A stretch of 64,000 bases of DNA from Haplodiscus bocki. Its lineage: Eukaryota. Below are positions 29,600 to 49,878 of this stretch, piece after piece. The notes under the pieces were generated by a model, which saw only the letters and a program-made list of their open reading frames with translations, had not been told where the DNA came from and did not search any database. How positions within the stretch are numbered: position 1 is the first letter of the stretch; every line of letters starts with the position of its first letter. The stretch lies in assembly GCA_965655095.1 (NCBI GenBank), contig OZ296651.1, positions 30,256,001 through 30,320,000 on the forward strand, in the 5' to 3' direction. Position numbers and translations under genes: made by a program.

Positions 29600-32500
29600 C
29601 AGGGTTTTCCAAAAGGTAGATGAATTTCCAATACGCACTTTTATACTCCAATGCGAAATGTAAGCCAGTGCTACATTAACTCGGGATTGTAAAACGTAAA
29701 AACGAAAAGGTGGCCTGTCGCGATCCAAGGGAGCAGAAAAGAAAATGAAGAGCAGCCAAGTCGATAGACAATGTTCGAAGAAAAAAGTTGTTAGTAGACG
29801 AATGTTGGACCTGCAAAAATATAAGAAATCCTTATACAAAATTGACGTTACTGGAGATTTTCTAGATTGAAAATTATGAAGGAACAATCAATTTTCTGAA
29901 TGACAGGCAGAAAATCAAACTCCTCAACAAGTTCCTCGCGAGCGTCTTCACCACGGACGGAGAACTGCAAAACAAGAACGGTTAATTTTCTCGGGAGCCA
30001 GGACAATCAATTCACAATTAATAAGAAGAATTAAAGGCTATCCTGAAATCGCTAGACATAAAAAAGCTTGCGGTCCCCAAAACATCGGAAATATAATCCT
30101 CAGGAACACACCAACTCTCTCGAAGTTAGTGAAACTAATCTTCCAAACTACACTCAACAAGGAACCTATCCAAAAGAAAAAGAGTCGAGTAACCCCGCTA
30201 CTATTCAAAGATAGATTGAGTCAGATTTAAGGCAGTAGACAAAATGGTCTACAAACACAATCAAAGTCTTTGAAAGAGTAATATTCAATAATCTTTACCC
30301 TCTATAAGAGAAACTTCCTCCAACTTCAGAGTTCGGTTTCCGACGCAAAAAATCAACAGCGCTTCATTTGCTAACTTAACTGAATGACAAGAAACATGAA
30401 ACTACATAACTCCACACACGTATGTTTACTTTTTTGGAAGACTTTGACAAAGTTGCTCGCAGTACGCGTATTGCGAAGCTGCAGCATTCAAGGGGAAACT
30501 AATGAAACTTCTCGCGAATCACACCATCAATGGACTTCAGAACGTCAGAATGGGACACTATCAATTGACGAACACAAGGATCAGCGCCGGTGTCTCACAA
30601 GGATCTATCCTCGGAGCGCTATGTTTCTCGTCTATATAAACCACCTACCGCAAGCAGTGCAAATACAGATACATATTGCATACGGGTATATCGATGACTT
30701 CAAAGCAGAGGTGTGATAGCGATAGCGATCGCTATTCGCTATAGCGAAGCATAATTTAGCGACTTTAGCGAATAGCGAAAAGTAGCAGTTAGCGATCGCT
30801 ATAGCGAAGCCAATTAAACCGAGTACATGTAATTTCGCAGCGACGGTCAGTCAAAGCGTGCACGCAAATAAAACCGAGTACATGTGATTTCGTGGCCGCA
30901 GTCAGCCAAGGCGTGTGCGTTGAGTGCAAAAAGAATTTCAACTGTGAATTGCTACAACCAATAACTGCACAGGAATTTGAGCCTCTCTCGTGTTACTGGC
31001 AGCTACTTCAAAGTACCGTGCGACTTGCTTTTGACTCTTTTACGTTTGCAAGGTCTAGTTATCGACAGTTTCACTGCCATGGGCTTTCGTTATGAGCAAC
31101 TTTTTCGAGATATAGATAATACCAAGTGCACTGCTGTGTGCAAGACATGCGTTGTTACCATCCAATTCTCAAAGTCAAGTAAGTGGAATTTGAAAAACCA
31201 CTATCAGAATTAACATCCCCAAAGATTAGCCTAATTAAATTCTTGCAGCCATTTAACTTTAGCGGCAACAAATGGAGTGGTTGGAGTATCTGCGGATACT
31301 GCAAATTCTACTTCTAGTGGCACCCGTGGATCAAAATTCATTGGCCAATCACAACTAACTGAATCACTTGTTAGAAATTTGGTTGCTAAGTGCAACTTTC
31401 CTCTACATATATCTGAAGATAATTACTTTCGTGCTTTCGTGTATGATGCACAGCCCTTGTATAAGCCTATCTGCTATCGGACTGTTGTAAATACCTTAGA
31501 TGGGCTGTCACAGAAGTCAACAAAGAACTTTAATCTGGAAATTCGCAAGACTGACTCGCGTTACAGCATTGGCCTAGACTTATGAAAAGGTAGAGACAAG
31601 AAAGAATACATGGGGTTCATTATTACGTTTATGAAGCATTGGCAACTGGTGTCTTCTCTACTGTTCTTTTCGCCCTTGCTAGACAGTCCAACAGCAGCAA
31701 ATGTCTTACAACATGTTCGCAATGAATTCGACAGATTACGGCTATTCTCAAGTTGCAATGACAACTGCGCAGTAATGAAAAAAGCTTTTGTGGGCCTACC
31801 CGAACTAACAGATATTGAAGATGCGAACCAAGAAGAACCTGAAGAAGATGGTTTTTTGACTACTTCACAGACTGAAATTGAAGGTCTATCGGAGGAAGAT
31901 TTTAGTGTTGTCTCTTGGCATGGTTGTGTGGCACATCTTTTGCAACTCGTGGTTCAGGTCGGACTAAAGGCCGGAGCTGTTTATATCAGATATTCAAATA
32001 CTATTTCTAAGTGCAAGAAAATAGCTGGATTGGGCAAGTGGTCGGTTCAATTTTCTTCGAAACTATCCAAGCGTATCATGCAAGCTACAGGGGTGAGATG
32101 GAATTCATTTTTTGCCATGTTGACCAGTATTTTCGATCAACACGAAAAAATTAGCCGGGCTCTCGTGGAATGTAGAAAAGAAGATCTGAAACTTAACGAC
32201 AATGAGATTCATCTAGTTCGAAATTTCACCAAGCTACTAAAATATTTTCAAGAAGCTACCGACATCCTTCAACTTATGCCATCCACAAGGTTATTCCTGT
32301 GTGCCAAATGCTTTCAAAAGCTGTTGCCTCTATTCAATTTACCGAAGATGCGTGTTGCAACCACATTAGAGAAGCAAGCCTAAATTCACTGGAGAAACGA
32401 TCTGAGTATGTTAAATCATCGCCAAAGCACATTTTTGCAACGCTCTGACCCAACCAAGAAACTCTAACATTACACGATCGAATAATCGGTTTTTCAATCT

Positions 32501-33560
32501 TAACCAAGAAGTCTGCCTACAAAAATGCAGGGACCTTATTGAGCAGCACCTCGAGTCCGAAGAAATTATTGATATAACACAGCCTACGGCCTCAAAGCAG
32601 CCCAGAATTTCACTTCTCGATTTTGATTCTACATCTACAGACGCTACCACACATAAACGTAAAGTCTGGTCGCAGTTTCTGGGTTTTATAATTTCTCCCG
32701 TCACGGCACTCTCGATGTCGAAACACTGGTCCAGCATTGAACAAAACTCTTTGACAAGACTACTGAGAAATGTGTTAGGATGTCTACCCAGTGACGCCTC
32801 GGTAGAACGACTTTTCAACAAGGCTGGAGATATTCAGCGTCCTAAGAGGGCACGGATTTCCTCAGAAAACTTGCAAAATTTATTACTTATTAAGTGCAAT
32901 GAAGAATGAAATTTCTTATACACTGATGAAGATTATATCATATAGCGATAGCGAATTGCGAGGCCTAAAATAGAGAATCTAACGATAGCGAAAGTCAAAT
33001 AGCGAACGATAGCGAATAGCGAAAAAATTTAGCGAAGTCACACCTCTGCTTCAAAGTAATCTTGAACAGTGCGAATGAAGCAGAGGAGATCCTGTTTTTC
33101 ACTTGTCGAGGACTGATATGAGACTGATGGAAAAGTCTCAGAAGTGAGTAAATGGATAATTGGTAACCACGACATCTTCAAACACAGATTAGCAACATTA
33201 AAAATCCTTCAAATTTCCTCCTGTATTTGGAACTACGCGACTTGCAGTTTATGCCATCCGCAATGAACGGGGTCTGTTGTATAGGAACCCCCAAACTATT
33301 CAAACTTCGCACAAGTTTAATAAGACAACATCTAGCGTTCGATATCGCGAAACTGCACCTAAAGAAATCTCTTCAATCTTTTTGGGCGCGATCCGCAAAA
33401 AAAACTACAAACTGGTTTGTTGAATCTGCCACTCTGACAACATGGAAAGAGATTGTTAAGAATCTCTACGCTCAATATCAACTCAGGAGATACCATGAAC
33501 TTGACTCTTGTACCTGAGAGTTTTTAGCTCTTGCAGAAGCTGCAACCAACTCAAAAGACT
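29600..33560 (+). mobile_element. Highly decayed LINE (CR1-group) RT, split by the hAT insertion
   Basis: FGFRRKKST, GVSQGSILG..MFLVYINHLP and YGYIDDFK immediately before 30706. Sequence resumes after 33056. Outer limits are approximate. Confidence 0.65.
30706..33048 (+). mobile_element. hAT DNA transposon with pseudogenised transposase
   Basis: 11-bp TIR cagaggtgtga/tcacacctctg; perfect 8-bp TSD cttcaaag (30698-30705, 33049-33056); subterminal tagcga repeats. BED finger CKTC..NLKNH, CVAHLLQL, VRWNS and dimerisation motif ASVERLFNKAG. Confidence 0.95.
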
Positions 33561-33908: not shown

Positions 33909-34481
33909 AAAATTCGTTCGAAGTTCTCTTATTTACATGTACATAGATATCGATTAAACTATACTGGGGAAGATACCCCGATGCCAACACGGTGCTTGCT
34001 TTCACCTCAAATTAAATTCATGAACGACGAAGCAAAGCAAACGAAATCACAATGAAATCACAGACGGCTTAATAGGGAAAGATACATTTTGAAGGTTAAA
34101 TCTTTCAAAATGGGCTGTGAAAATATATTTAGATTTAGGTAATTCAAATGAATATTATTTCTACTATTTTAAACGATTTTTTTTCTAATAATTAATTTTT
34201 ATAAAAGACGAAATAGTGCTCGCGTTGAAGGCGACATGACTCTGCTCAGTAGTATCAAAAGTTTCATTGAATCTCAATTATTGTACCTATAAAGCCATTG
34301 GAAGTGTATCCGGCAGCAATATTCATGCCTAAAAAGAATGAATTAAAATCAATGAAACTTGTTGGGGTTTGGGCACCAATCATTAGTCAAAATCTAAATA
34401 AATGCAAACACTAGACTGATAAAAATTTGACGATCACGGATATCAATCATTTTTAGTAGTCGTAGTAAAATCTTTAGTGGG

Positions 34482-35362
34482 TGTCATCCACACGGGTTTT
34501 TGGGACCCTTATTTCATTCTATTGTCCGACCGTAAAGTTCATAGCTGTTGTCACTCGTTACAATTTCCACAAAGGCAGAGAATACACTATGTGCAGGAGT
34601 TCTTGAGATTGTATGTGGAGTTGAAGAGGTTCAAGTAAAGCTGTGCCAGAGATTTCTCGTCCCTGACAAAGTTTGGATTCTTGTTGATCAGATTGTCTTA
34701 CTCGCGATTGCACCAATTCTAGGTAGCTTGTATCGAAATCAAAACAGTTGTTTACAAGCGCAGAGTGGCAGAGCAATCATGCTTTTCGAGGTAGTAAGAG
34801 ACAGATAGAAGTTTGATTTTTCGGAGTCTTTCCTTTTACGTATGTTTTCTGCTTATTTTCAGATGCTGACTGATGATGGGTGTAAAATCTTGATAGTTCC
34901 TATTATTTAGAGATCTCTGGTTTTAGTAATCTTCAGAGCGGGGCGTGAGGAAGAGATTTACAGAAAAGAGTTAATTCATAGTCAATCGTTCACTAGAAGT
35001 GTAGAGAGCTCGTGTCCATCTACGATTGTTGTTATAAATAGTCATCAATCTTTTTTATTGAATTACTGCTTCAATATTAGATATTTCTCATGCAGAAACT
35101 TCATATAAATCTAATTGTTTACATCAGTATATTTTGTATTGAAAAGTCACTCACGCAAGTATTGAGATTCAGAACCCAATGTCTTTTTAATAGCTTTCTA
35201 TTGTTGAGATTATTGCTTTTTTGCGTTCCGGGGTGGGCTTTTCTTATTAGTTAAAATTGAGTTAATAATAGCTCCAACAAGAAGGGTTCAAATATATGTT
35301 GCATGCTTTCGACTAATCAACTAATTAGTTAATTTGGTTTAATCTTTTTAGAAATTATTACA
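34482..35362 (-). repeat. 3' LTR (~880 bp)
   Basis: TG..CA ends; 35274-35362 matches 46129-46217. Purine-rich tract (aaagtcgggtag, minus strand) abuts 35362. The left end rests on the TG terminus plus TSD. Confidence 0.8.
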
Positions 35363-35449
35363 CTACCCGACTTTATTACTTCTCACGCCGGATTTTTCTG
35401 GGTGAGTTATACAGTTAATTGTCCTTTTTTTCTCGGTTAGCTCTCTATG

Positions 35450-37652
35450 TTATATACGTCCAGTTTGTAGTTGTCTGTTGAGTTGGGAATAGATTGGGGC
35501 TTCTGGTTCTGTGTGTCGTATTTCTCTAGGTTCGCGTAGTTGGGATTCCGGGATTAGTAAACTCTGGTTTCTCCACCGGAATTTCTCGTCGTTTTCAAGC
35601 CCATGTAGGTGTTGATCTTCCACCATCATAATTGGCTTGAGTTGTACCTTCTGATTTTCCAGTTTGTGCGAAAAGGGTAGGAATTTGTGGAGCTTCTTGT
35701 ATCTGTGTAATGCGTACGTTATTCCCAAAAGGAGTGCTGTACTCTCGAAGAATACTACCAGTCCAATTGCAAGATGACTTTTCCACGATAGGTAGTTGTT
35801 GAACTGCTTCTCCAGGGATGGCTTCAAGGCTGTGAGTCTCTGTGCAATTGGTTGTGCAATATAATTCAAATCTTCACGGTATGAGTGGTCCGGTTGTGAC
35901 TGAAGTTCCAGCTTTAGTGAGTTCAGTAATTGAATGTTCGCTTCCACTCTTGTGTTGTAGTGTGGTAGTTGGTCCACTGTTGGTATTAGACTGAATAGTC
36001 GGGCCATTGGTTCAGGAAGTGTTACATTCAGCTTCAATGGTGGAACTTTCATACACGTACTCAAGTCTGATCTTATTCTAACATCGGGGCCAATGAGTTG
36101 TTTTCCACAGCTATGGCTAACCAGGCAAATCTGGCAACCATCAACTGTCGAAGATCCGGCTGTGGTTGTTGCATACATATACGATTCCCTGAATTTGAAA
36201 TTGGGTGAAGCAGAGGTTATTAGCCATATTCCATAACCCAAGTTTGTAGCTTTTTCCTTGAGAGGAAGGGTTACAGCTTCCGTGTCACACACATCAATTG
36301 CATCCATTACGCTGCCAAAGTAGAGTACTGCTAAGCATGACGCATCTGATGTTTCAGTCGCCATTGTTTCGTGACATATTTTGTATTTATTTGAAGCAAT
36401 GCATTTTGCAAGTTGGTCCTGACTGACCAATGCCGTTCCTCTGAGGTCTTCCGATATTGCAATGTACACGGTTTCCGTAGTCCATCGGATTGCATACTCT
36501 TTTTCCAGCTGTGGCATCGGGGCTACTATAGCTTTGTAGACAGTGAATACTGTTTGTCTTGACGCCAATGGGATCGACATTGTCATTAAAAGACCATCGT
36601 TCAATGTTAGCACATCCAGGAGCAGTCTTCATTCGTAATAAGCCAGAAGCTCGTCCAAGGGAATAGCCAGGGTTAGTCTATCGCGTGATTGTAATTGTTC
36701 TGTAGCCACCTGTTGGAGAATTATTTCCAATGATTCTTTTGGTAGTAGGGACATCGGCACGTATTGACTACGTAATGACGGTATTGCGTTCATAATGTTC
36801 ATCTGGAATGCGTAAAGTGCTGCTCTGTAGGATTTCACGTTACTGTAAATAAGTGACAGTAGTGATGAGATTGTGTCAAAGTTAAAATTCACTTGTCTAG
36901 TATAGAGGGGTTGGTCACAATTCCTCATCTCATGGATGTTTTGTTGAAAAACACTAAATTGTTTCTCAATTGCTTGCCAGTTTTGATTTTGAGTTTCAAT
37001 AATTTGTCGTTGGATGCCATGCAGCATCTCCAGTTCTTTCGATACTCTGAAAAACTCGCATCCGAGGCATTTGCTAGCTGTTGGATGTTTTGTCCCAAGT
37101 TGATTGCATATGCTCCCAATTTCTCAATGTTTTGTGCATTCTGTTTTGCTCTTTCTTCACATAAACCGAGTATTCCCATTATTCCGCAATCTCCGGAGCC
37201 AAACATGATGCCGCCACCAAATAGGCCAATTGCGCCGACTGCGGCTGCAGCTAAGGGTAGCGCTCTTTTGTTAGCATTCCTACCTTTGAGGAATGACGCA
37301 ACGTCATTTTTGATTTTTGCCAGGTCGCTTTTCGCAAATGATATCTTTTTTTTGTTTCTTTCAGGAGCCAATCCATTTTAAAATCAACTTCACTCGTATT
37401 GGTGAAGTTAAGGTAACAAAAATAGGTCGGGGTTTGCCACATGTTTTGTAGTGGCCGTGCAATTTGGTCAACGTTTTCTATAAGCGTCATTTCGAATCTT
37501 GGGAACGGGACTAAAAATTGTATATTTATGAAATTCTCTGCCAGAAGGATTTTGGTTTCCTCATTAAAAAAGATGCCCTTGTCCAAGTTGCCTTGGCGGC
37601 TGGTTGCTTGGGCTATTTGAAATAAAAATATCAAGATGAGCAATTTGTACAA
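35450..37652 (-). pseudogene. env: Envelope / class I fusion glycoprotein (frameshifted)
   Basis: Signal peptide YKLLILIFLFQIAQA; basic cleavage site RNANKR followed by fusion peptide ALPLAAAAVGAIGLFGGGIMFG; heptad-like region; Cys-rich ectodomain; TM HLAIGLVVFFESTALLLGITYAL; cytoplasmic tail. Split into four ORFs. Confidence 0.88.
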
Positions 37653-37653
37653 A

Positions 37654-38161
37654 TTAGGCTTCTGTTACGTATTGTTTCATATTTACTAACATGGTTGCAA
37701 TAAAAAATTGTTCAATTCCATCTTTGGTGTGTTCAAATGAGTTCTCTAGCTTGTGATGGGGCCGACCATAGTCTGCTGTCTCTGGTTTAGCCGTGAATAT
37801 CCATCGGCTTTGTTGAGGGATTGGTTGTCCGATGAATATTAAGGGGTAGTCAGGGTTGAAATTGTAGTAGCAGGTGTCCACGCGAACTTTTTTTATGCAA
37901 TTTCATATAAGTTAGTAGCTCGTCGAATATTGATAAGTAGGTAGAATTTCCCAGGTTCAGTAAGTGATATAGACTGCAAAATTTTTTGCTATGTTTTTCA
38001 ATTTCCACAATTACTTTTTGTCCATTAAGAATATCAGAGCTGCTAATAAGTAAGCGTAGCGGAGGGCAACAATGGCATTCCTGCCATTGAATTCTGTGTA
38101 TAGTTACTAAACAATTTTTGCAAGGAGGTTTCCACTGAAGATCAACTTCAAATTTTGTCAT
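37654..38161 (-). pseudogene. Accessory ORF of unknown function directly upstream of env (Cys-rich N-terminus, one frameshift)
   Basis: ORFs 37850-38161 and 37654-37881 overlap. CKNC..CHCC motif. The stop lies 1 nt before the env start. Confidence 0.5.
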
Positions 38162-38540
38162 TTATAAATAATTTTGTAAAGCAATACTACTGTTACAAGG
38201 TACAACTGTTCGTAATTCTTCTATTTCGCAAGTGGTTCTGTAGGATCTCTTAAAGCGTCGAATATATTCGCTGAGTTTTTCAGTTTTTGTTTAGTTTTAT
38301 TGGGAAATTCATTCGACCGGAAATTTAATATCGTGACGTCAGCCAAAATTTTTTGAGCGAATCATTTCAATTTCTTGGGATATCGTGTTTCTCAATATTT
38401 CTCAATATAGTGTTTTATTACCGAAACCAATTATGGCGTCCTTTTGTTTATCAGTTTATTTGGTTTCTGTCAATCTGCTCAATGATTACGTCAGCATCTG
38501 AATGACCGAAAATGTCGAATTTACACAAATTTCAAGGTTT

Positions 38541-38834
38541 TTGCGAGTATTTCAGATCATGGATTGTGTTCGTGCCATTATTGATAGTGTGTTTGAGCTT
38601 TTGTGTTGTCCAGACGGAACAACAGTCTTCAAAGAGTCAAAGAAAGTCAGTTTTTCCCCTGTGAGGGATGTTCGGTGCCCTTTCATTCAAGCCGCTACTG
38701 GTGGAAGTCCAACAACTGTTACTCCTGGGTGGCCGTATTATCTTGTAATTTCCCGCTTTCTGGCAATTAGCGTGTTAGCGTCAGTCTTTTTCCTGCTCAA
38801 GAGATGTCGTGCTGTTCATGATACTCCTGAATAA
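38541..38834 (+). CDS. Possible small antisense membrane protein inside the provirus
   Basis: MDCVRAII...YLVISRFLAISVLASVFFLLKR: one hydrophobic helix followed by basic residues. Same strand as the JmjC gene. Confidence 0.3.
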   Translation: MRVFQIMDCVRAIIDSVFELLCCPDGTTVFKESKKVSFSPVRDVRCPFIQAATGGSPTTVTPGWPYYLVISRFLAISVLASVFFLLKRCRAVHDTPE

Positions 38835-39118
38835 GAATACCTTTGTTTGACTGTTTTAAGCAATGCGTTTAGTGTTATTGAGCGTAGCACCCCTTTCAGG
38901 GCCTTTTCTGTCCCAAACGATTACAATTCAATAATAATACCACCTGTTACGTAGTTCATTTAATACCTTAGGTGTTTGTTATATTCGAGCTATCATTCAA
39001 TTATTCTGCTGTCTGTTTTGTTTCTCTTGCCACGTTCTGGCATATCCATTGTTGATAAACACGATGATGAGATCAAGAGTATTAACTTTTTCTAGATTGA
39101 AAAACGGATCAGTTCAAT

Positions 39119-39916
39119 TTGTTGTTGAATTTATGTCAATCACATTGTAAAGAAGTGGATGCCGTTGGAGAGGAGGAAGCTGCCAGATTCGAGGCTGTGA
39201 CAGTTGTTCGGGGCATTTCATGTTCCTATAGGGTTCCCCTGTTGCAGGACTTGGCAGTTAGCTGTGTTGATTTGTCCATTTTGAAGATGCATTTCACTAA
39301 TTGGGGGGAAGAGAAGAATATTGTGCTATTTCCTGATACAACATTGATTACAGCGTTAATGCCAACTGAGAATGTGGATAATGTTTCACAGTGGTTCAAC
39401 AGTGCAATAATACCTCTGGAGGTTGTACATGATCCTATTTTATTAGTGGCAACAGGCAATTGTCTCACTGGTTTTCACATGGATGACAAACGTCCCACTG
39501 AAGTTGTGGCGTCTTTGTTACGTGGACGGAAATTATGGTTATTCGCCACTCCTGGGTCCAAGTCTGCTTCTGCATTAGTGAAAAGACCCGAAAATACTCA
39601 CTTCGAACATTTCATGGGGGATATGGTTTTTGGCCGTTATAAAGACTTGTTGTATTGTCTACAGGAGCCTGGTGATACTATTTGCTTACCTGCGCGAACC
39701 GTACACTTTGTTTGAAGTGTTACTCCAGATAATGGGTGGAACTGTTTATTAAGTCACAATGTACGACATGAAGAAAATGAAGCAGTTTCTATGGAAAGAA
39801 AGGCCTTCAATCGTTGTAGTGATCAGCGGTCTCGGACAGTCCAGGGGAAGCGCACAAAGCAATCTGGTGTTACAAGGAAGCGGTTCACACCTCGAAGAAG
39901 ATCGAAGACTTCTTAG
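39119..39916 (+). pseudogene. JmjC-domain 2OG/Fe(II) oxygenase, antisense within the provirus (premature stop at 39713-39715)
   Basis: LTGFHMD (HxD), LLRGRKLWLF, and QEPGDTICLPARTVHFV (distal His). The frame continues after the stop to a basic tail RKRFTPRRRSKTS* at 39916. Confidence 0.85.
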
Positions 39917-40550
39917 TGGTTAAAAGTTTTTTATTCTTTTCTTTCTTGTCCGCTCGTAGTGTCAAAAGTCAATTTTTGTAGTGGGTTGTTTTAAGTAGGA
40001 AATGTAAAACTGCTTTTCCGCGTTAGTCGTTGTAGGGAGGCTCCATTTATACCCTATTGTGTAGTACTCTTTCTAGGCTATCGGTTGAGAGTATTAAGTC
40101 TCCGATATCTGTCTTTGTCTTTGCAATCGCAGTGGCACAAGTTATTTTTCCGGGACTTCGAAAAAATAATTTTTTGTACATTTTGGATGTTAACAGTCAT
40201 TAGTAATGCTCCCACAGGTATGTGAAGTACCCTATCGTGTAGAACGCGTTTTCACCTGTCCCTTGAGCTATTTTACTTTGTTTTGTGGTTTCAGCTTCGG
40301 TCATTCGCAGTGGCACAATACTTCAATTCTTTGTCCTTTTTTGTAAGATAATCAAATTTCTGTCTCGTGTTTCCTTTGTAGACCGTCTAAAAGCCTGTCC
40401 TTGATCTCCATGTGTAGAAAATTTTCATTCAGTGGGTTTTCCGGGGTATTTTTTGTCGGAAGGATCCAGAATGTCTTTGAAATTTTCAAATTTTTTTGCG
40501 TGGTTTCTTTTCTAGGTATCTTCGGCGGATTGAGCTATTGAGCTGACGGT

Positions 40551-41510
40551 TTAAGCGCGGAAGCATACTGTTACTTGCACCGGGGAATGCTGAAAAACTT
40601 CTAATAAAATGTTATGTACTACTTGCCTTCTCAGGCTGTCAAGTCCACATCCAAGTTTTGGGAGGCGGATATGTTGGATTCTGTTCATTTTTGCGTGGTT
40701 TCGCATCAGTATGAGGCTCGTTCTGAGAGATTTGTAGAATGGTTGGTGGAAGACTTTGTACTTTGTTACTAAATTGTAGATCCAATTTCTTGAATACTTG
40801 TCATAGTACGCAAAAACTGATCCTGGAATGAGGTTTCTCGATGATTTTCTTTTACTTTGTGGGAAAAGTTGGTTAAATTTCGCTGCTATTCCTGCTCCCA
40901 TGTAGAAGTCTGAGGAAACGCAGTGTCCCATACCACAATGTTGTTGGAAAAGGTTTTCCTCTACAATTCTAACATTCTTCGTTGTGTCTCTTCGTTGAAG
41001 TTCATTGAGTTCTGGGCGTGGTTTCTTTGTCATAGATCCACTCTGTTGTGCTCCCTTTCGCTGGACAAATTGCATCTGCTGGCGTTCCTTTCGACGGTTA
41101 TTCAGTAGGTCTACGAAATTGCGTGCTTCTTTAGTTTCGCCTTGAGTTGTGCGTTTTGAAGGTTGTCTTTGGAATTGTCTCCCTGCAGCTTCTAATACTC
41201 TGAAGCTTCTGCTTTTTGTTTGATTTTGTTCCTGTACTCTTTCTGAGCGTCTCAGTGGATGGATTGGTTCTACGTATTCGTCAGATTCTTCAGAAGAGTC
41301 TGGAATTTGGGCTGTAAGATTGTCTGGTGTTAACACTCTTCTTGGTGCTACTATCTGTTTTCTATCCCTTGGATTGGGTTGTGGTATTTCACCTGCTAGT
41401 GCTGGAATAGCGATTGGCGCTGGTACAGCTGGGGCTGGTGCAGCTGGTGGTTGTTGCGTTGTTCCAAAGGAGATTGAAACTCTAACTGGGCTATCAAAGT
41501 TTGTTGTCAT
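40551..41510 (-). CDS. Pol C-terminal extension with TARG1/OARD1-type macrodomain (domain ~40551-40980)
   Basis: GHCVSSDFYMGAGIAAKF, IYNLVTK..HQPFYKSLRTSL..MRNH and LPKLGCGLD align motif by motif with OARD1/TARG1. In frame with integrase, separated by one TAG. Confidence 0.9.
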   Translation of the reverse strand: MTTNFDSPVRVSISFGTTQQPPAAPAPAVPAPIAIPALAGEIPQPNPRDRKQIVAPRRVLTPDNLTAQIPDSSEESDEYVEPIHPLRRSERVQEQNQTKSRSFRVLEAAGRQFQRQPSKRTTQGETKEARNFVDLLNNRRKERQQMQFVQRKGAQQSGSMTKKPRPELNELQRRDTTKNVRIVEENLFQQHCGMGHCVSSDFYMGAGIAAKFNQLFPQSKRKSSRNLIPGSVFAYYDKYSRNWIYNLVTKYKVFHQPFYKSLRTSLILMRNHAKMNRIQHIRLPKLGCGLDSLRRQVVHNILLEVFQHSPVQVTVCFRA

Positions 41511-41534
41511 ACTTGTTTTTTCATGGTTTATTCC

Positions 41535-43196
41535 CTATTCCAGTAAACCTGGGAGGCCTTTGTCAAAGTAGTCTTGTTCTCCTCTGTACTTGTCTGAGAG
41601 TGGGTCTGTTTGGAAGTTCTCTGGGTCAATGTCTCCAATATCATCCACCTGATATTGAGGAATGATTGGTCTCGTCCTGATTCGGTGAACTATTTGTGTA
41701 TAGTTGGTACCTACTTTCCCAATCATGTAATTGAAGTCAGTTAGTACTTTTTCGATGCGGTACATTGCCAACCATTTCTGAATGAGTTTAGGACTGAAAG
41801 CTGACTGTTCCGTCAATTTTGGGTTCAAGAGTAGGCAATAAGTTTGTTCTTTTAGGGGGTTTGCTCTCGCTTTTTGGTCGTAGTATCGTCTGTATCTTGT
41901 AAATGATTTTGCGAGGCTTTCTTTTGCCTTTGAAAACTGTTTCAACATTTCGTCTTTTAGTGAGTCAACAAAGTCGTAGTTGAATGCTGCTTTTTGTATG
42001 CAACTACTATAGAATCTCAAATCTAGAGGTTTCATCGGTTCTCTACCATGGAAAAGAACTGTTGGAGAGCATCCAATTGATGTATGGTACGAAGTGTTGT
42101 GGATGAATGTAGCCAATGGGACATATTTATGCCAATTTGTGAAACTTTGGTTGCTGTTGAGCTTCAGAATTCTAGCCACAGCTGCAGGTGATCTTTCAAC
42201 TACTCCTATCGTTTGTGGGTGTTTCAGCGAAGCGTGAGAGATTTTTATCTCTGGGAGTTGCGTAAGTTCGTGGAGGAGTTCCGAAACAAATTGAGTTCCC
42301 AAGTCTGACATTATTTCTTTTGGGATATAACTGTGGTTGAACAATATGGAGACTAGTGCTGAAGCTACTGTTGAGGCGCTCATTGTAGTTAGTGGTACTG
42401 CGAAAAGGTATTTTGACAAAACATCGATCGCTGTTAAGACGTATTTGTAGGGTGTCGTTGGGTACGCTCCCATAATGTCAATGTGCAATATGTCTCCTGG
42501 AAATGAGGTTGTTGAGGAGATCTCTTGTAGTGGTGTTTTTACTCGCGACAAATGTATTTGTTTCAGTTGAAGGCATGAAGAGCAGTTTCTGATATAGTCC
42601 ACAATTTTCTTAATATAATTTGGGCAGTAGAAGCGTTTTCTGAATTCTCCAATTGTTCTTGTTATTCCCAAGTGGCCGCCTGTCGGTGAATTATGAATTC
42701 GGTATAGTATCTCCTTCAGCATGTGTTTAGGAACACATAGTTGGTCGTAAAGGGTTGTACCATCGTGGTTATAGTAGTTGCGTTTTAGGATCCCATTGTC
42801 AATTATTAACCTGGGTAGTTGTTTTATGTATTTTTGCTCATCTCCCGTTGAGTATATATTATTATCAGGAATGTTTCCGTCTGTTTTCCAATTTTTAACC
42901 GTCGTCAACAGTGTATCTTTTTGTTGCTCATTTTGTAGCTGTGCCATCGTCGTTTCTAGTTCCGGGTAAGTATCCATTGGGTTTGCTGACTGTATCGCGT
43001 TTATGGTTTCTTCACGGGTTTTGTATTTGATTAATTCTATGTCGGTACAGTTTTCTGTATTTCCTTTCAGTCGTTGCGAGGTTTGCTCATAGTTTCCAGA
43101 TTTTTTCAGCGTTATCAACGTGTTGATATCTACCACGTGCAGTAATCCATCCGGGAAGTCATCTGCAAAAAGTTCATTGATCGTGTTATCTGGCAA
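41535..43196 (-). CDS. pol: Gypsy integrase
   Basis: HHCC motif (HNSPTGGH..CSSC) and DDE core HIDIMG / SDLGTQF / VVERS. Confidence 0.92.
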   Translation of the reverse strand: MPDNTINELFADDFPDGLLHVVDINTLITLKKSGNYEQTSQRLKGNTENCTDIELIKYKTREETINAIQSANPMDTYPELETTMAQLQNEQQKDTLLTTVKNWKTDGNIPDNNIYSTGDEQKYIKQLPRLIIDNGILKRNYYNHDGTTLYDQLCVPKHMLKEILYRIHNSPTGGHLGITRTIGEFRKRFYCPNYIKKIVDYIRNCSSCLQLKQIHLSRVKTPLQEISSTTSFPGDILHIDIMGAYPTTPYKYVLTAIDVLSKYLFAVPLTTMSASTVASALVSILFNHSYIPKEIMSDLGTQFVSELLHELTQLPEIKISHASLKHPQTIGVVERSPAAVARILKLNSNQSFTNWHKYVPLATFIHNTSYHTSIGCSPTVLFHGREPMKPLDLRFYSSCIQKAAFNYDFVDSLKDEMLKQFSKAKESLAKSFTRYRRYYDQKARANPLKEQTYCLLLNPKLTEQSAFSPKLIQKWLAMYRIEKVLTDFNYMIGKVGTNYTQIVHRIRTRPIIPQYQVDDIGDIDPENFQTDPLSDKYRGEQDYFDKGLPGLLE

Positions 43197-43277
43197 TTTG
43201 GCACGAAAGTCTATTTCTATCTCTCTAATAGGTATGCGATCGGTAGGTTTCAGTTCAATTGTTTCGTTTGGATCAGC

Positions 43278-45002
43278 TTACAGGCGAGATAAGAAATCTG
43301 CTGCTGCATTTGCTTTTCCAGGTATGTGCGCAACAACTATGTTGAATGCTGTTACTCTATCGATATAATTCCAAAGTGATGGAGGGATTGTTTTTGCTTG
43401 AAAGAATCTCGTTAGGCTTTTGTTGTCAGTCAAAATTAGTACGGTTTTTTCACTTTCCCAAATGAAATGTGAAAATGTTTCCAGTGCAAAGTAAAGTGAT
43501 AGGAATTCTTTGCAATATATTGACATTTTCAGTTGCGCCGTGTTAAATACCTTTGATCCAATTAATACGGAAGCGTATGATTTAACAGATTCTCCTTTGT
43601 CGTTTTTTACGTAGTCTTCAATCATTAGCACAAAACCACTAGAATGGCAGCTCGCATCACAAACAATTGCGTACTGTAAACCGGGTTTAGCTAGTCTAAG
43701 CGTTTGAGTAGCCGTCGTTTGTAGCTTTTGTTTCAGCGTTTCAAAGGCTTCCATAATGTCTTCTGTGAGCTCGAATGATACATTCTTTCTGAGGAGTTTG
43801 TAAAATGGTATCAAGTGTTCATTCAAGTTTGGAATGAAGTTCCGAAAGAATTGCAGGAATCCAATCAATCTTTTCACTTGTTTAACTGATTTTGGTTCTT
43901 CTGAAGTTCGCAGAAACTTTTCGATCTTCTCTTTTTCCGGTTTAAAGCCTTCTTTAGTAATGACATTAACTAGAAAACTAACTTGTTCAGATCCAAATAT
44001 ACATTTTTCTGGTGACAATTTGAGTCCTGATCGTCCAAGGCATTGGAAAATTTTTCTGAGGTAAGGTAGTAGTTGCTCAGCGGAGTCTACTCCACATCCA
44101 ATGTCATCCATGAATTGGGTGCAGATGTTTGCAGAAAGGCATGGTTCTAGGTAGTTTCGTACAAATGCACTGAATCCTGTTACCGCTCTATTGAGTCCTC
44201 TAGTTAGTCTCTGATAGGCCATTGTTCTTGATGCAAAATTAAACGCTAGTAGTTGTACTGATAGTGGGTCTGCCATTTGGACACAATGGTAGGCTTGGGA
44301 ACAATCGAGTTGTGATTTTCCTGCAGAATGAGCTGTTGTGTCAGCCATTTTAGAAATTGGAAAGTTGTTATTATGATAGTCATGAAGCAGTAAGTGGTTG
44401 ATTCTTCTCAAGTCAACTAAAATTCTGAGTTCTCCGTTTGTTTTACGATGGGCAAAAATTGGGCTATTATATTTCGAGTGGTTGAGACTTGTAATTAACT
44501 CAAAGTACTGCAGAAGGGCTAATTCGACCTGAAGTTGTTCTCGTAAGTGAATAGGTGTTGGTGGACTCTGAGTATAGACTGGTTTGTCATGTTCAGGCGT
44601 AAGTTTCATTGTTATTTCTGAATTGTAGCCAACATCAAATCTGTGTTTTGCAAAAATAACAGAAAATTCAACTAACAGCTCTTCAACTTGTTGTTTTTGC
44701 GATTCATTTAGTACGGGGTCTTTCCACTTGAATCTTCGGAGAAAATGGTTTCTATAGCTCTTGTCTGTTTGGAGGTCAATCTTGTCCAATTCTTGAAGTT
44801 TTGATAGTTCTGTATAAAATCGTTTTTCAACACCTTGTAATTTTTCTGGGTTTTTACAGGTTTCAGGCGTTGGGAACCAAAATTTTCTATATTCGGGTTT
44901 TGGGCGAGGTGGTTGGGAGTCTGAACTGAATTCCTCATCAATGATGAGTTGATTTATTTCCTGAGCAAAATTTTCAGGAATTCGTAGTTTTGCCAATGTC
45001 AA
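43278..45002 (-). CDS. pol: Gypsy reverse transcriptase + RNase H
   Basis: LRILVDLRRIN, LDCSQAYH, QFMDDI, CDAS, CKEF, TDNKSL and NAAADFLSR. In frame with integrase across a single TAA. Confidence 0.95.
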   Translation of the reverse strand: MTLAKLRIPENFAQEINQLIIDEEFSSDSQPPRPKPEYRKFWFPTPETCKNPEKLQGVEKRFYTELSKLQELDKIDLQTDKSYRNHFLRRFKWKDPVLNESQKQQVEELLVEFSVIFAKHRFDVGYNSEITMKLTPEHDKPVYTQSPPTPIHLREQLQVELALLQYFELITSLNHSKYNSPIFAHRKTNGELRILVDLRRINHLLLHDYHNNNFPISKMADTTAHSAGKSQLDCSQAYHCVQMADPLSVQLLAFNFASRTMAYQRLTRGLNRAVTGFSAFVRNYLEPCLSANICTQFMDDIGCGVDSAEQLLPYLRKIFQCLGRSGLKLSPEKCIFGSEQVSFLVNVITKEGFKPEKEKIEKFLRTSEEPKSVKQVKRLIGFLQFFRNFIPNLNEHLIPFYKLLRKNVSFELTEDIMEAFETLKQKLQTTATQTLRLAKPGLQYAIVCDASCHSSGFVLMIEDYVKNDKGESVKSYASVLIGSKVFNTAQLKMSIYCKEFLSLYFALETFSHFIWESEKTVLILTDNKSLTRFFQAKTIPPSLWNYIDRVTAFNIVVAHIPGKANAAADFLSRL

Positions 45003-45697
45003 TAAATGTGGATCAATTGGGTTAATGTTTCTGCTTGTTGGGGTGTGAGGAATTTGAATAATGCTATGTCAGAGTTTAGTGGTATTGTTATTTCAATATT
45101 TTGCAAGTTCAAAGCTGAAATGAACAAGTTTCCATTAGAATCCGTTCTAGAAAGGGATGACGTGATGCACAAGCCTGTTTTGTCTTCAAAGTTCATTTTT
45201 GGTTCTACTATTTCGCACACGTCAGTGAATATCTTCTTCGAAAGTAATCTACATTAAAGGGTTGTTTGTTGGTTGGGGCGATCGTTATTTTTTCCGAAGT
45301 TCTAACTGAATAATTGGGTTTCGTGTGCTTTTCCGTTGGGTTTGGTTGAAACTCGTTCAATTGAAGTCATAGGTCCTGTAGTTTTGAGGTTTTCCTTAAG
45401 GTGTAATTCAATCGAGTTGTTTTTGAAGAATGGGTTTCCCAGTATAATACTATTCGTGCTTGGCAAAACTAAAAATTTGTCGTTGAATAAATGTTTTGCT
45501 ATTGAGAATGTTAGTTCAATTTGGCCACGCACAGGTATAAGCTGTCCTGAAGCTAGTTTGACTTTACTGACCTCTGAAGGTGGAGGACGTTGGGTTCCAA
45601 ACGATTTTAGTTCATGGGAGTCCTTTTCACTAATAGCATTTGCACAGGCACCAGTATCTATTAATGCTTTTCTCTGTTGAGTGTTGGAGAATTTCAA
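44999..45697 (-). pseudogene. Aspartic protease followed by a dUTPase-like relic
   Basis: ALIDTGACANAIS and IILGNPFF (45302-45697), then ITIAPNQQ..IVEP..ISALN..ITIP..IA (45000-45300). The dUTPase-like call is an inference. Confidence 0.75.
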
Positions 45698-45801
45698 GGG
45701 GACATATGAAAGAAGGTCTCCTTCAAGAGAGATGCATGCTGTTATTCCGTTCTCCTGAGTTGTTTGTGCTTCCTGTGGTGCGTCGTCATACTGGCGTGGC
45801 T

Positions 45802-46128
45802 TTATTCGAATTTTGGTGCTGTTTGGTAAGGGATTTGTTGATTTCTATTTGCTGGTTTTCTCTGATTGCAATCTCTGGCGTAATGGTTTGGGTATCCACA
45901 TGTAAAGCATATTTGTTTTAAGTAGCTAGTTTGTGCAATGTGTCTGTTATTCGAAGATTCTTGTATCTGTGGGTTGCTGAATCTGTTGTAGTTTATGCCG
46001 TAGTAGCCTCTGTTGTTGTTGAATCTACCTCGTCCTCTATTGTTAAAGTTTCCACGTCCTCTAAATTCTCTTTGATTGTTGAATCTGTTGTTTCCTCTAT
46101 AGTAATTCTGTTGGTAGGTATAGTAAAC
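45802..46128 (-). pseudogene. gag: Gag C-terminal fragment (nucleocapsid)
   Basis: N/R/G-rich segment and CCHC knuckle CFTCGYPNHYARDC. The N-terminal part is deleted. Confidence 0.85.
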
Positions 46129-46217
46129 CCAATAAGAAGGGTTCAAATATATGTTGCATGCTTTGGACTAATCAACTAATTAGTTAATTTGGTTCAATCT
46201 TTTTAGAAAATATTACA
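46129..46217 (-). repeat. Truncated 5' LTR remnant (longer copies at 49502-49629 and 52920-53047)
   Basis: About 4 differences in 89 bp from 35274-35362. Ends attaca followed by TSD atggg. Confidence 0.9.
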
Positions 46218-46466
46218 ATGGGTTTACCAGTCCCGAAGTAGTTTCATTGATTTTAATTCATTCTACTTTCATTCTTTGGGTACTCAATTCATATATTTTT
46301 TGTTTAATATGATTTCTAAAGCCCTTCTTTCATATTTCAGACTAAATCTACTTTAGATGGTAATTGTACTGATAGTTTTCTTTACTGAAAAGTACAATGA
46401 AATTGTTGAAGTGGTGGCACAAGAACGAAGCGACAAATGTGCTTACGAACAATTTGCAACTCTTAC

Positions 46467-46647
46467 CGCTTTTAACGTCGGCGGATGTAGACCGTGGAGG
46501 CCTCACACCTAAGCTTTCTCGTCTCATTCTTCGTTCCCTGCCGTCCTGACTGGAAGCCAATTTCAACCCCGGGTTCAACAATAAGCACAGAAGAAAGAGG
46601 CAGAAGATTTTCAGCATTGTAAACGCTGGTCCACTACTAATAGCCAT
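46467..46647 (-). CDS. Signal-peptide exon of the Cys-loop receptor, copy 1
   Basis: MAISSGPAFTMLKIFCLFLLCLLLNPGLKLASSQ..DVKS; 181 nt ending at donor g|gtaaga (phase 1), which fits the phase-1 acceptor at 24808. Linkage is inferred from phase and from that exon's lack of a signal peptide. Confidence 0.75.
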
Positions 46648-47599
46648 TGCTGCACTAATAAAAGCTCACAACAAAAGCAATCAAGTAAAAAGATGCAATT
46701 CCACCGAATAAAAAAAGTATCTACAAGTTATGGTGCACATAAATGAACAAACTGGCATTGTTTTTCAGGTTGTGGGAAGAGACTTCCTGGTATTTTATGC
46801 TGAGTGTTCAAACTAAATTCTGCGTAGTTACTTCGACAGCTTTCTGTTCAATCCGTAAAATCGATAAAAAGATCAATATTGGACTTCTACACATCATCTA
46901 TTCTAAAAAAGAACTTCAAAATACTCCTAAAGAAAAAGTTAATTTATTGATGTGCTTCGTTTCATACAGCATCACATACAAGTTTAAAAACCACATTAGA
47001 GAGACCCTCCAAAAGCTCAAGCTGGTTTGTTGAAGTAGGACCCTCAAGCAAGTCATTAGAAATGAAGTAAAGTAACAGAAAATTCCTTCGGCAATCAGTT
47101 GAACAGAGTTATTTCTCAGTTGTAGTAGTAGTAGAAAAGATTCTATAATAAGAATATAAACAATGAAATAAACCCAAAGGGAGCCTGGACGGGAAAATGA
47201 AAAGACCATGACAATTAACAGCAATTACATTCAATAAAACGTTGACAGGTTTGTCGTTCATAAGAATCTATGAAATAGTTCCATATTATGAATTTCAAGT
47301 TCTTCTTCACTAGACTGTGATCGTTGTGATAAACTTATCAAATATGTGGACAAGAATGTTAGAGCCTCTTATCGAAAACTCTGTTGGGTAGCCCGCAAGA
47401 GATTACAGAGAGAGGTAGAAAGTGGAAGATCACCGGAGGAGACAGGGCACTTCTGGATCTGGAGACGATCTCCCTTCTTCCAGGTTGCAACATTCCATAT
47501 ACACATTGGAATTTCACTGCCCCCGCCCCCTATCCCCACAAAAATATTCATAATTAATTATTCATTTATTAAGTTAAAAATTTCGACATTATTTTTCGC

Positions 47600-47881
47600 C
47601 GCTTTGTAATGTTCCCCTACGAAGTTTTTCGGTAGTGAGACAACAAATTTTCTATAGAAAATCATGATATTCCCCTCTTAAGCATACAATTTTTCAATAC
47701 CCGAAATTAGTGACGCACTAAAGGGTTCCCCAACGAAATGTTTCGGTACTGTGAGACAAAACAATTCTGACGGAAAATCGTGATACCCTCCCCCTCTCTT
47801 TTCCCTAACATTTGTCGAAATCAGAAATTTTTTAAAACACAGAAGGGTTCCCCTATGTAAAATTACGGTACTGTGAGACAA
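47600..47881. repeat. ~107-bp satellite-like repeat (also 51020-51300, 56247-56420; related at ~13290-13520 and ~13940-14005)
   Basis: Repeated ttcggtactgtgagacaa..aaaatc(g/a)tgata.ccc and gaagggttcccc motifs. Confidence 0.65.
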
Positions 47882-49501
47882 GAAAGAAAGACTTTATTTT
47901 CCACATTCGCATCTTAATTGACACATAAACTTGAAAGAAATATCCAGCATATGCACATGTAGAGGACCCTCCATAATGTCAAGCTTTTCGAGAGAGGACC
48001 TGAAAGCTCCAAAGCTATGTAGAAGCATTTGTTAGTTTAGTTTCTCAGACTTTGAAATATGAGTTCGGCTGGTGTCTCAGGGCAACTGTTTTTTGCTTCT
48101 CTTAACTTATGCATTAGTTGGTTTTCTGACTATTGAAGTATGTTATCGGTAGAGTAATAATTTGCGATGGAGTAATTTAATACTTTAGAACCGCGGTTTT
48201 TTATAGACTGATCTTCTCGCAAATTAGAAGTACGAAGATGGTAAAAGGCACCGCTACTTACACTCCTCGTTTCATGAACATTAACCCGTGTCTTTTAGAA
48301 GCTGTTAAGAGAATAGGAGCAGTTTTCGCGCACTGATTGAAGACAGAATTTAAGAAGCTCCATAGCGTACAACTCGAACACATTTAAAAACCCATTTTGG
48401 AAGAAAAGTTCTCGACTAGGGTGAAATTGCGGCTCAAAGTGAATTAAGCTGAGTATTTATTTTTGAATGATGTAAATGGGGTTCAACCGGTGTCTTGATG
48501 TACAACCATACACCAACAAACCAAATGTGAAGATAGGTTCGATATATTTCCGGTAATACTTCAATAAAGTCCCCCTGGGTACGTAATGTCTCAGTCGAGC
48601 TATGACGGACAATTGCTTCGAAAGTTTTTTCACTATGTGTTTGATATGGGAGTGAAACGAGAGTTTAAGATTAATATGAATCTCCAAATACTTTGCACTT
48701 TCGTCAAATACTAAATTTACGCCCATAAAGGGAACATTAGATGTTTGGTTGAATTGCAGCATTTGTGTTTCTGGAATGTTGAGAGCTAGCTTATTTAAAC
48801 TCATCCACGATGGAAGACTCATTAGTTCTTTGTCGAGACACGAGGTCAATGATTTCCTTTTAGAGTATATCAAGTTTGCGTCATCAGCAAAAAGATACGT
48901 GGTCACATTTGGGCAACATTTAGGAAAGTCACTTATGTAAATAATAAAGAGTAAGGGCCCCAGTGTGGAGCCCTGTGGAACACCACAATTGATCGGCTCA
49001 AAGTTTGACCATTTATTGTTTACAAATACAGCCTGTTTCCTGTTTCTTAGGTATGATTCAAACCAATTATTCACAATTCCCCTGACACCGCATTGTGACA
49101 GTTTTTCCAATAATCTGTAATGATTAATGGTATCAAAAGCTTTTCGAAGATCTAGCATAATACTGGTAAATTCTTCATCAGTGCCTGATCGTATGTTCTC
49201 AATGATCTCTATTAGCGCATCTACAGTTGAATGCTTAGATCTAAATCCAAATTGCTTCTCAAAAAGTATGTCCTTTTTGCCGAGGAATTTGTTTAGACGA
49301 TTGTACATGATTTTTTCCAGTACATTACTCAAAACTGGTAGTAAAGAAATTGATATAAAAATATCAACGTCGGCTTTACTGCCAGATATAAATAGTGGAA
49401 TTACTTTGGAATTTTTCAGACAGTCTGCAATTTCGCCATGACTAAACGTTTGATTTATTAACTTTTGTATATATGGGACTATAGCCAGATCTGAAATCTT
49501 T
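47882..49501 (-). mobile_element. CR1-group LINE 3' half (RT + 3' end), copy 1
   Basis: QFGFRSKHST, LDLRKAFDTINH, GVPQGSTLGPLLF and LFADD. 3' end aataaa followed by a (cttt)n tail. Confidence 0.9.
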
Positions 49502-49878
49502 GGGCTTTTCTTATTAGTTAAATATGAGTTAATAATAGCTCCAATAAGAAGGGTTCAAATATATGTTGCATGCTTTGGACAAATCAACTAATTAGTTAAT
49601 TTGGTTTAATCTTTTTAGAAAATATTACAATGGGTTTACCAGTCCCGAAGTAGTTTCATTGATTTTAATTCATTCTATTTTCATTCTTTGGGTACTCAAT
49701 TCATATATTTTTTGTTTAATATGATTTTTAAAGCCCTTCTTTCATATTTCAGACTAAATATACTTTAGATGGTAATTCTACTGATAGTTTTCTTTACTGA
49801 AAAGTACAATGAAATTGTTGAAGTGGTGGCACAAAAACGAAGCGACAAATGTGCTTACGAACAATTTGCAACTCTTAC

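Follow-up and report, generated by a model that had tools for sequence, protein, structure and literature searches.

An env-bearing Gypsy element with two additional enzymes

The window analysed here is a stretch of 64,000 nucleotides from the genome of Haplodiscus bocki (contig OZ296651.1, positions 30,256,001 to 30,320,000, forward strand), a 1.5 Gb genome of an animal that is likely an invertebrate. On its minus strand, at 34881-46217, lies a copy of a Ty3/Gypsy long terminal repeat (LTR) retrotransposon between 5-bp target-site duplications (TSDs) of sequence ATGGG. Besides gag, pol and env, this element carries a macrodomain of the TARG1 class at the end of Pol and, on the opposite strand, a gene for a small JmjC oxygenase. 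Both BEL/Pao elements and a second Gypsy group contain relatives of the JmjC gene, which is more widespread than the first-pass annotation of this DNA had noticed.

The JmjC gene (39104-39916, plus strand) encodes a predicted 2-oxoglutarate (2OG)/Fe(II) oxygenase of ∼270 amino acids (aa), recognised by Pfam, by profile search and in a structure model, with an H-x-D...H motif and a basic C-terminal tail in which 11 of the last 30 residues are Lys or Arg. Pfam scores the broken window copy at E 8e-4 and two relatives (P0001 and P0024) above its cut-off. On the same strand lies open reading frame (ORF) A (38547-38834, ∼90 aa), with conserved cysteines and a C-terminal hydrophobic helix (hydropathy 2.4). 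Two small minus-strand ORFs, B1 and B2, are paralogues: B1 (37850-38161, ∼95-100 aa) has a CxCC motif and is conserved across subfamilies, and B2 survives in the window as a 3' remnant (37657-37890) with 87% identity to the end of a 226-aa ORF at locus L003, ∼750 bp being missing at this point. A deletion in the window copy fuses two small ORFs. Searches of Pfam, PHROG and the Atlas found no family for any of the small ORFs.

The window JmjC gene has 152 matches in the genome. We examined 9.9 kb around 20 of these, spread over 33-67% identity, and the gene is antisense to the element at all 20 loci, with the macrodomain present at 19 and env at 19. The order is constant: integrase, linker and macrodomain, antisense JmjC and ORF A, sense B1 and B2, and env. 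Among 23 copies the catalytic residues are largely retained (first His in 18, Asp in 22, the 2OG-binding Lys in 23 and the distal His in 22), and the triad is complete in 24 of 30 family members. Three variants lack JmjC (L068, L069 and L070). Two of them, on different contigs and 98% identical, share one deletion junction that removes ORF A and most of JmjC, and the JmjC gene is therefore not needed in cis; the third carries a different deletion and retains ORF A.

The macrodomain (40551-40985, minus strand) forms the C-terminus of Pol in the reading frame of the integrase, and the frame joining the two is open in other copies. It matches human TARG1 (PDB 4j5q) with an E value of 1e-19 over 124 residues, and TARG1 chains were its only matches in the PDB; by these matches it is of the TARG1/OARD1 (ALC1-like) class, and hydrolase activity is predicted. 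The catalytic pair of TARG1 is Lys84 and Asp125 (PMC9411070; here and below, sources are cited for those parts of them that were available). Equivalents of both are present in the window copy, and the Lys is found in 21 and the Asp in 19 of 23 copies. TARG1 acts on proteins and nucleic-acid ends (PMC7050489), on thymidine (PMC9411070) and on RNA bases (bioRxiv 10.64898/2026.03.31.715305), and ADP-ribosylation of KAP1 contributes to L1 silencing (PMC4695847). Like human TARG1/OARD1 and DarG, the element's domain is a minimal ALC1-like macrodomain with Lys84 and Asp125 equivalents (PMC7050489, PMC9411070), but here it sits in a retrotransposon polyprotein. That the pair has been kept suggests that ADP-ribosylation acts on invertebrate retroelements.

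The macrodomain might instead serve mainly as a reader, holding the integration complex at ADP-ribosylated chromatin or at DNA breaks, much as a chromodomain is placed at the integrase C-terminus of chromoviruses, rather than as an eraser directed against host defence. Its fusion behind the integrase through a long linker would suit such a role, and chromodomains occupy the same position in some env-bearing Gypsy elements (PMC13524379). Retention of the catalytic pair argues against this, as does a different Gypsy family in which the macrodomain lies between RNase H and integrase, and we consider a mainly reading function unlikely. That other family (L054:2420-7213, minus strand) is multi-copy and has a long env-like ORF following. 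TARG1-type domains are common in other Gypsy families of this genome, a macrodomain search returning 5774 first-look candidates.

Selection and descent

Ratios of nonsynonymous to synonymous change (dN/dS) were obtained by pairwise codon comparison of 23 natural copies, pairs of which are not independent. For pairs in which the proportion of synonymous differences (pS) is 0.6-0.74, the median dN/dS is 0.20 for JmjC (60 pairs) and 0.20 for the macrodomain (106 pairs). The corresponding medians are 0.08 for reverse transcriptase (RT), 0.11 for integrase, 0.12 for the C-terminal piece of env and ∼0.3 for the small ORFs; in diverged pairs B1 gives 0.30, ORF A 0.33 and the integrase-macrodomain linker 0.19. 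Values for env between subfamilies are 0.01-0.14. For the window and L023 copies of JmjC, pS is 0.74 and the proportion of nonsynonymous differences (pN) 0.21. Synonymous sites are thus saturated between subfamilies while amino acid change is limited. Stops occur at 0.39 per 100 codons in the JmjC frame and at 3.3-6.8 in the other five frames. JmjC and the macrodomain are under purifying selection between subfamilies. Among copies of this genome, distances correlate with those of RT (Spearman 0.71 for JmjC, 0.85 for macrodomain, 0.81 for env and 0.86 for integrase), which fits mostly vertical descent of JmjC, macrodomain and env.

If JmjC and the macrodomain were chance cargo or secondary insertions carried neutrally, one would expect relaxed ratios and losses, and both can be pointed to: near-identical siblings have dN/dS of 0.5-2, and JmjC is gone from some copies. 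However, the ratios of 0.5-2 extend across all genes, with integrase and env as near to neutral as the others, as expected from decay after insertion; between subfamilies selection is strong and distances track RT. Neutral carriage is refuted by synteny, dN/dS, retained residues and stop counts, and we regard it as hardly credible.

Related JmjC genes in BEL/Pao and a second Gypsy group

Weak matches in the genome led to a 293-aa JmjC relative, J2, with ∼30% identity. At 11 of 12 loci the J2 gene is tail to tail with a BEL/Pao pol beside the 3' LTR, its start lying ∼70 nt from that LTR. A third relative, J3, has the same BEL/Pao placement at all six loci of another, young family, of which there are 7 further copies at 95-99%. 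Among 8 weaker JmjC matches, 2 are beside a BEL pol and 6 (L091, L093, L126-L129) are without a pol match within ∼5 kb. The BEL/Pao assignment follows from DUF1759, Peptidase_A17, DUF5641 and integrase domains in L088 and L097, the remaining loci having been assigned by tblastn with these domains. Loci with an antisense JmjC gene between a BEL/Pao integrase and the 3' LTR are L079, L081-L090, L130, L131, L092, L094 and L097.

Among 1.84 billion representatives a profile search picked out 89 matches, the distant ones being small stand-alone JmjC proteins with basic tails. One subgroup occurs on 14 contigs from metagenome records; only L097 extends into a neighbouring gene, which codes for a BEL/Pao integrase and runs in the opposite direction, and the other 13 (1.2-2.9 kb) gave no pol match. 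One cluster (P0024, with P0072-P0121) comprises 10 JmjC proteins at least 90% identical to one another and with no match above 69% in this genome; a related genome therefore holds a recently spread family. A further ∼20 distant small JmjC proteins come from short contigs.

A younger macrodomain-bearing Gypsy group, whose RT is 65% identical to that of the window element, has a 372-aa antisense JmjC-like gene between macrodomain and env (L053:1274-2392, plus strand; loci L156-L167). Its product has an H-x-E...H motif and a profile match to JmjC (probability 93%, E 3e-7), and it gave no match in Pfam. The gene has 111 genome matches, and it lies 3' and opposite within 5 kb at 29 of the 37 macrodomain matches assigned to this group; 11 of 11 copies retain Thr, His, Glu, Lys and His. 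By placement and profile it is a second, deeply diverged JmjC-like gene in the same slot. Elements of the younger group also contain a mini-ORF for a membrane protein, on the antisense strand, together with three ORFs of ∼100 aa that are related to one another. Taken together, the placements indicate that the JmjC gene is a module shared by Gypsy and BEL/Pao, and its recurrence in both, on two occasions in Gypsy, suggests that the selective pressure is a general one.

Two other origins were considered. Polinton ancestry of J2, suggested by L056, is ruled out since 11 of the 12 loci lie inside BEL/Pao elements. At L056, L095 and L091, ORFs that by eye are Polinton/Maverick-like (protein-primed polymerase, integrase, ATPase-like) adjoin a fragment of BEL LTR and JmjC. 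A viral origin of the JmjC cassette is not supported: viral contigs, phage records and PHROG contained no relatives of it, the only viral matches being distant JmjC folds.

Pol, env and element boundaries

The remaining genes of the element, all on the minus strand and, apart from env, identified by Pfam, are a C-terminal remnant of gag with a CCHC knuckle (45805-46128), aspartic protease (45305-45844), RT with RNase H (43281-45068), and integrase with an H2C2 finger and rve core (41538-43277). A proline-rich basic linker (40986-41537) joins integrase to macrodomain, with an in-frame stop at the integrase end in the window copy. Env (35450-37664) is in four pieces in this copy and matches Baculo_F in Pfam at E 2e-5, just below the cut-off; among 9 env pieces 2 match this family (E 2e-5 and 3e-6, near the cut-off), and a sequence search of the PDB with env found no match. 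The N-terminus of the protein is hydrophobic; further on, basic residues precede an Ala/Gly-rich hydrophobic run that resembles a fusion peptide, and there is a transmembrane stretch. Env is probably an F-type class I fusogen, and by its gene content the element is an env-carrying Gypsy, an errantivirus in the broad sense.

The left TSD is at 34876-34880 and pairs with an identical 5-mer at 46218-46222. The 3' LTR (34881-35362, minus strand) is 482 bp long, has TG...CA ends and is 94-98% identical to both LTRs of three siblings; a short purine-rich stretch beside it (35363-35372, minus strand), kept at the LTR edge in most of 24 copies, is by its position the probable polypurine tract. Only an 89-bp stub of the 5' LTR remains (46129-46217, minus strand), 85 of its 89 positions matching the 3' LTR. 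The rest of that LTR, the primer-binding site and most of gag are deleted; one sibling has ∼1.25 kb of LTR, leader and gag that the window copy lacks. Perfect 5-bp TSDs are found in two of the three siblings, and a primer-binding site beginning TGG in two of three. LTR pairs of the siblings diverge by 0.2, 1.2 and 4.2%, and the subfamily therefore inserted fairly recently. TG...CA ends, a short TSD and the Pol order protease-RT-RNase H-integrase all accord with Ty3/Gypsy.

The first-pass annotation had placed the element at 34482..46217 between a pair of LTRs with a TSD. Its right end stands; its left end moves to 34881, the TSD is the ATGGG pair given above, and the LTR pair is reduced to one LTR and a stub. 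The left boundary was set by genome search, in which only 34881-35362 matched the paired LTRs of the three siblings. The segment 34482-34848 is part of an unrelated dispersed repeat, with 72-84% identity to many loci and tandem arrays on contig C8. The same annotation had listed gag, protease, RT, RNase H and integrase, an in-frame macrodomain, an opposite-strand JmjC gene, small packed ORFs and a fusion-protein env. We recovered each of these, gag as a zinc knuckle and the small ORFs on both strands, and its view of a complex env-bearing element with two enzymes is supported by synteny and selection. Its suggestion that these enzymes could counter ADP-ribosylation and chromatin silencing is treated below as a proposal. 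JmjC and macrodomain, which it allowed might be confined to this copy or be evolving neutrally, are syntenic across diverged subfamilies and selectively constrained, although pol, JmjC and env are interrupted in the window copy.

Stops or frame changes interrupt the window copy in protease/RT, RT/integrase and integrase/macrodomain, and its JmjC gene has one internal stop and has lost its start codon. The window copy is dead; the sequences of its relatives indicate that the family was formerly functional. No Rfam match was found in 34000-47000. To the right, 46129-54260 is a tandem duplication with a 3.4-kb period, 99% identical. Within it are LTR ends of 129 bp, at 49501 and 52919, as well as a fragment of LINE-like RT. 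Decayed ORFs that by eye resemble hAT transposases lie at 31586-32909.

Enzyme class of the JmjC protein

A structure model built from a 30-sequence alignment reached a predicted local distance difference test score (pLDDT) of 87. The model from 13 close sequences (pLDDT 36) was unusable, and the 13-sequence profile found no match in the PDB. In profile comparison with the PDB the first matches are PHF8, KDM7A and ceKDM7A (E 6e-5 to 2e-4), followed by JMJD6 (E 8e-3). An exhaustive structural search (VIA-align) gave PHF2 at Z 14.7 (root-mean-square deviation 4.2, 218 aligned), KDM2A at 14.3 and 14.0, and ceKDM7A at 13.6, all structural matches being at 10-16% identity. Two residues agree with the PHF8 alignment, the Thr that precedes the first His and the Lys of a GxK strand.

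By modelled fold and residues the protein is a JmjC 2OG/Fe(II) oxygenase, with activity predicted, and its catalytic domain leans slightly nearer to the KDM2/7 demethylases than to the JMJD5/FIH hydroxylases, two groups that the fold does not tell apart. It shares with PHF8, KDM7A, PHF2 and KDM2A the fold, the H-x-D...H triad and the Thr and Lys 2OG ligands, but at 13-15% identity, with ∼270 aa, a basic tail and none of their PHD, CXXC or F-box domains, and with an activity that is only predicted. Because only a JmjC domain was found, without PHD or CXXC, we do not file it as a member of the KDM2/KDM7 family; in the model it most resembles a stripped KDM2/7 catalytic core. A quick tree with host JmjC domains, which has long branches and includes two host rows taken in the wrong frame, was uninformative and indicates no donor; a Pfam search for JmjC scored 6 host matches. 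The retroelement proteins form a very compact, diverged JmjC set that Pfam barely detects, so that other repeat libraries have probably overlooked them.

Predicted splice signals on the antisense strand

A pyrimidine tract and YAG resembling a splice acceptor lie 8 nt upstream of the JmjC start (39087-39095, plus strand). Such a signal, ending 7-8 nt upstream, is present in 18 of 26 copies with a background of 7% (30 copies were given, 4 of them without a match covering the start). ORF A shows an acceptor, 3 nt and ATG in 13 of 15 copies (acceptor end 38555, ATG 38559 in the window). In J3 an acceptor 7 nt before the ATG occurs in 6 of 6 copies, and loci from independent records have one at JmjC in 6 of 8. 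Sense-strand starts (B1, B2 and env), checked by eye, have an acceptor in 0 of 7.

The J3 JmjC gene contains a 77-nt GT..AG intron (GC 0.29, compared with 0.56) in each of the four copies examined, and its exon 2 encodes the catalytic half. An intron in a retroelement persists only if it is spliced from the opposite strand, and antisense transcription of the gene is therefore supported. The upstream exon of JmjC could be an LTR exon or a trans-spliced leader, both of which fit. Two more specific arrangements were rejected: an HBZ-like donor beside the 3' LTR with an antisense TATA box in the LTR is not conserved across subfamilies, and a bidirectional CRE-type promoter between ORF A and B1 has its full palindrome in 3 of 18 copies, in one subfamily only. 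Three contig sets compared with L023 speak for presence of the sequence only. In the host KDM5 gene (L063:892-5283, minus strand) one uninterrupted frame encodes 1464 aa, and its ATG follows a splice acceptor at a distance of 8 nt. This KDM5 is of animal type, with 44-54% identity to those of named animals of all groups and 78-80% to two further orthologues.

A proposed anti-silencing role

From locus structure, selection, retained residues, fold, splice signals and recurrence we infer how the JmjC protein might be expressed, where it would act, on what, and to what benefit. KDM7-type enzymes remove H3K9me or H3K27me. The reading that we favour, with chances that we put slightly short of even, is that the JmjC protein is a nuclear lysine demethylase made from a spliced antisense gene and acting against silencing in trans, while the TARG1 domain of Pol removes ADP-ribose. 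Active members would produce two kinds of RNA. Sense RNA would give Gag, a Pol ending in the macrodomain, the two small CxCC proteins and Env; spliced antisense RNAs would give a small membrane protein and the minimal JmjC oxygenase, a placement that may allow expression and splicing without cutting the genomic RNA. The basic tail would bring the JmjC protein into the nucleus, where it could remove repressive methyl marks (H3K9me or H3K27me) and so keep or make proviral copies transcribable. Acting in trans, it would let single copies lose the gene and still move. The macrodomain, travelling with integrase, would strip ADP-ribose from element RNA, cDNA or proteins.

Because the JmjC gene is shared with BEL/Pao and recurs in a second Gypsy group, it would answer a host defence aimed at LTR elements generally. 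We suggest tentatively, and may well be wrong, that two LTR superfamilies of animals share minimal histone demethylases of their own, expressed from spliced antisense RNA as a module exchanged or re-acquired, which erase host silencing marks; with the TARG1 domain of Pol, one env-bearing lineage would combine two erasers against two layers of defence.

Several observations weigh against the demethylase reading. The copies compared are related, and the counts overstate their independence; loss of JmjC in mobilised variants fits a minor benefit too. No PHD or CXXC reader domain is present in these proteins of 270-300 aa, and the route to element chromatin is unexplained. Conservation does not extend to any splice donor: beside the 3' LTR a candidate is present in 6 of 24 copies, with a background of 24%. 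The acceptor is not universal (4 of 9 in J2 by a strict pattern, 0 of 11 in the second Gypsy JmjC), and it also precedes 3 of 9 host tubulin and actin genes. In the wide structural search JMJD5 (Z 13.4) and FIH (13.1) score little below the demethylases, and Foldseek puts hydroxylases first: JMJD5, TYW5, FIH and JMJD6.

These last matches bring in a different enzyme, a functional protein or RNA hydroxylase or an arginine-directed enzyme of the JMJD5/JMJD6/TYW5/FIH kind that does not touch chromatin. It could act on host factors of restriction, splicing or translation, on the primer tRNA or on proteins of the element. The small stand-alone form without reader domain suits it, the basic tail could bind RNA, and its neighbours in the Atlas are small algal and fungal proteins of the JmjC/Cupin_8 kind; an AlkB-class RNA demethylase is, moreover, proven in orchid Gypsy elements (PMC9289625). 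Yet the profile and the exhaustive aligner both place KDM2/7-group enzymes first, and the Thr and GxK Lys follow PHF8, so that we hold the hydroxylase to be somewhat unlikely.

A further explanation takes its model from HBZ of human T-cell leukaemia virus type 1 (HTLV-1). The antisense unit would be a device of self-restraint or latency, its RNA and proteins damping the sense promoter or protecting the host cell, for instance through loss of an activating mark, with selection through host tolerance. A spliced antisense layout between pol and the 3' LTR agrees with this, as does the position of the J2 start near that LTR. KDM2A, an H3K36 demethylase, is within 1 Z of the best structural match, and the JmjC-less variants did move; for plant elements, antisense ORFs and self-regulation based on double-stranded RNA are discussed (PMC7264820). 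An enzyme long kept in both Gypsy and BEL/Pao fits conflict with the host better than courtesy to it, however, and we think self-restraint quite improbable. The anti-silencing demethylase stays our preferred reading; if it is correct, an animal's LTR element would itself encode a direct means of opposing silencing through histones.

Comparison with known systems

The first-pass annotation knew of no described LTR element with this combination. That holds in the literature searched, where we found no paper on an LTR-borne JmjC (Repbase, Dfam, GyDB, most subscription journals and bioRxiv supplements lay outside the search); the macrodomain part is less new than that annotation implied, fish retroviruses with macrodomains being in print.

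Many invertebrates have env-bearing Gypsy elements whose env is of the F type (Chary and Hayashi, eLife 2026, PMC13524379). The 'ancient errantiviruses' of that paper resemble the present family in the order LTR-gag-protease-RT-RNase H-integrase-env, an F-like env and multiple copies in an animal genome, whereas here ∼3 kb of accessory genes on both strands lie between integrase and env. In the available text of that paper the terms JmjC, antisense and ADP-ribose are absent, and 'macro' appears only within species names (7 supplements).

The element shares with the fish viruses an LTR retroelement structure together with a macrodomain. Epsilon-like endogenous retroviruses (ERVs) of fish with macro-domain ORFs were reportedly described by Basta et al. 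2009. Such ORFs are noted for these ERVs in PMC4977317; here, in contrast, the carrier is a Gypsy and its macrodomain, joined to Pol, is of the TARG1 class, whereas the available part of that source gives no class for the fish domain.

Antisense ORFs between pol and the 3' LTR occur in the plant LTR elements Grande, RIRE2 and Retand (PMC7264820), and rotifer retroelements of different, unrelated types have accessory ORFs in common (PMC5408684). As far as these sources go, the plant ORFs resemble no known gene clearly and those of rotifers encode esterases or nucleases, whereas here the product is a recognisable JmjC with splice signals. Phalaenopsis Gypsy elements encode an AlkB N6-methyladenosine (m6A) RNA demethylase, likewise a 2OG/Fe(II) oxygenase as a fixed extra ORF and proposed to counter host surveillance (PMC9289625). 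Theirs is of the AlkB class, acts on RNA and is found in plants; ours is of the JmjC class, antisense, in animals and shared with BEL/Pao. A survey of fusions between chromatin domains and transposons names Chromo, PHD, SNF2 and SET, with no mention of JmjC in its available text (bioRxiv 10.1101/2021.11.30.470311).

Chromatin readers, DNA methyltransferases and an RNA demethylase are all on record from transposons. MBD domains have reportedly also been captured by retrotransposons. DNA methyltransferases were captured by other retrotransposons, and the likeness to the present family is the recruitment of chromatin enzymes or readers (PMC5890265). Those elements write or read DNA methylation, whereas here the candidate activity is erasure of histone marks. 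Capture of epigenetic enzymes by retroelements is not new in itself; the surprise, both real and selected, is a dedicated family of antisense JmjC genes in animal Gypsy and BEL/Pao elements, paired in the present lineage with a catalytically complete TARG1 domain and env.

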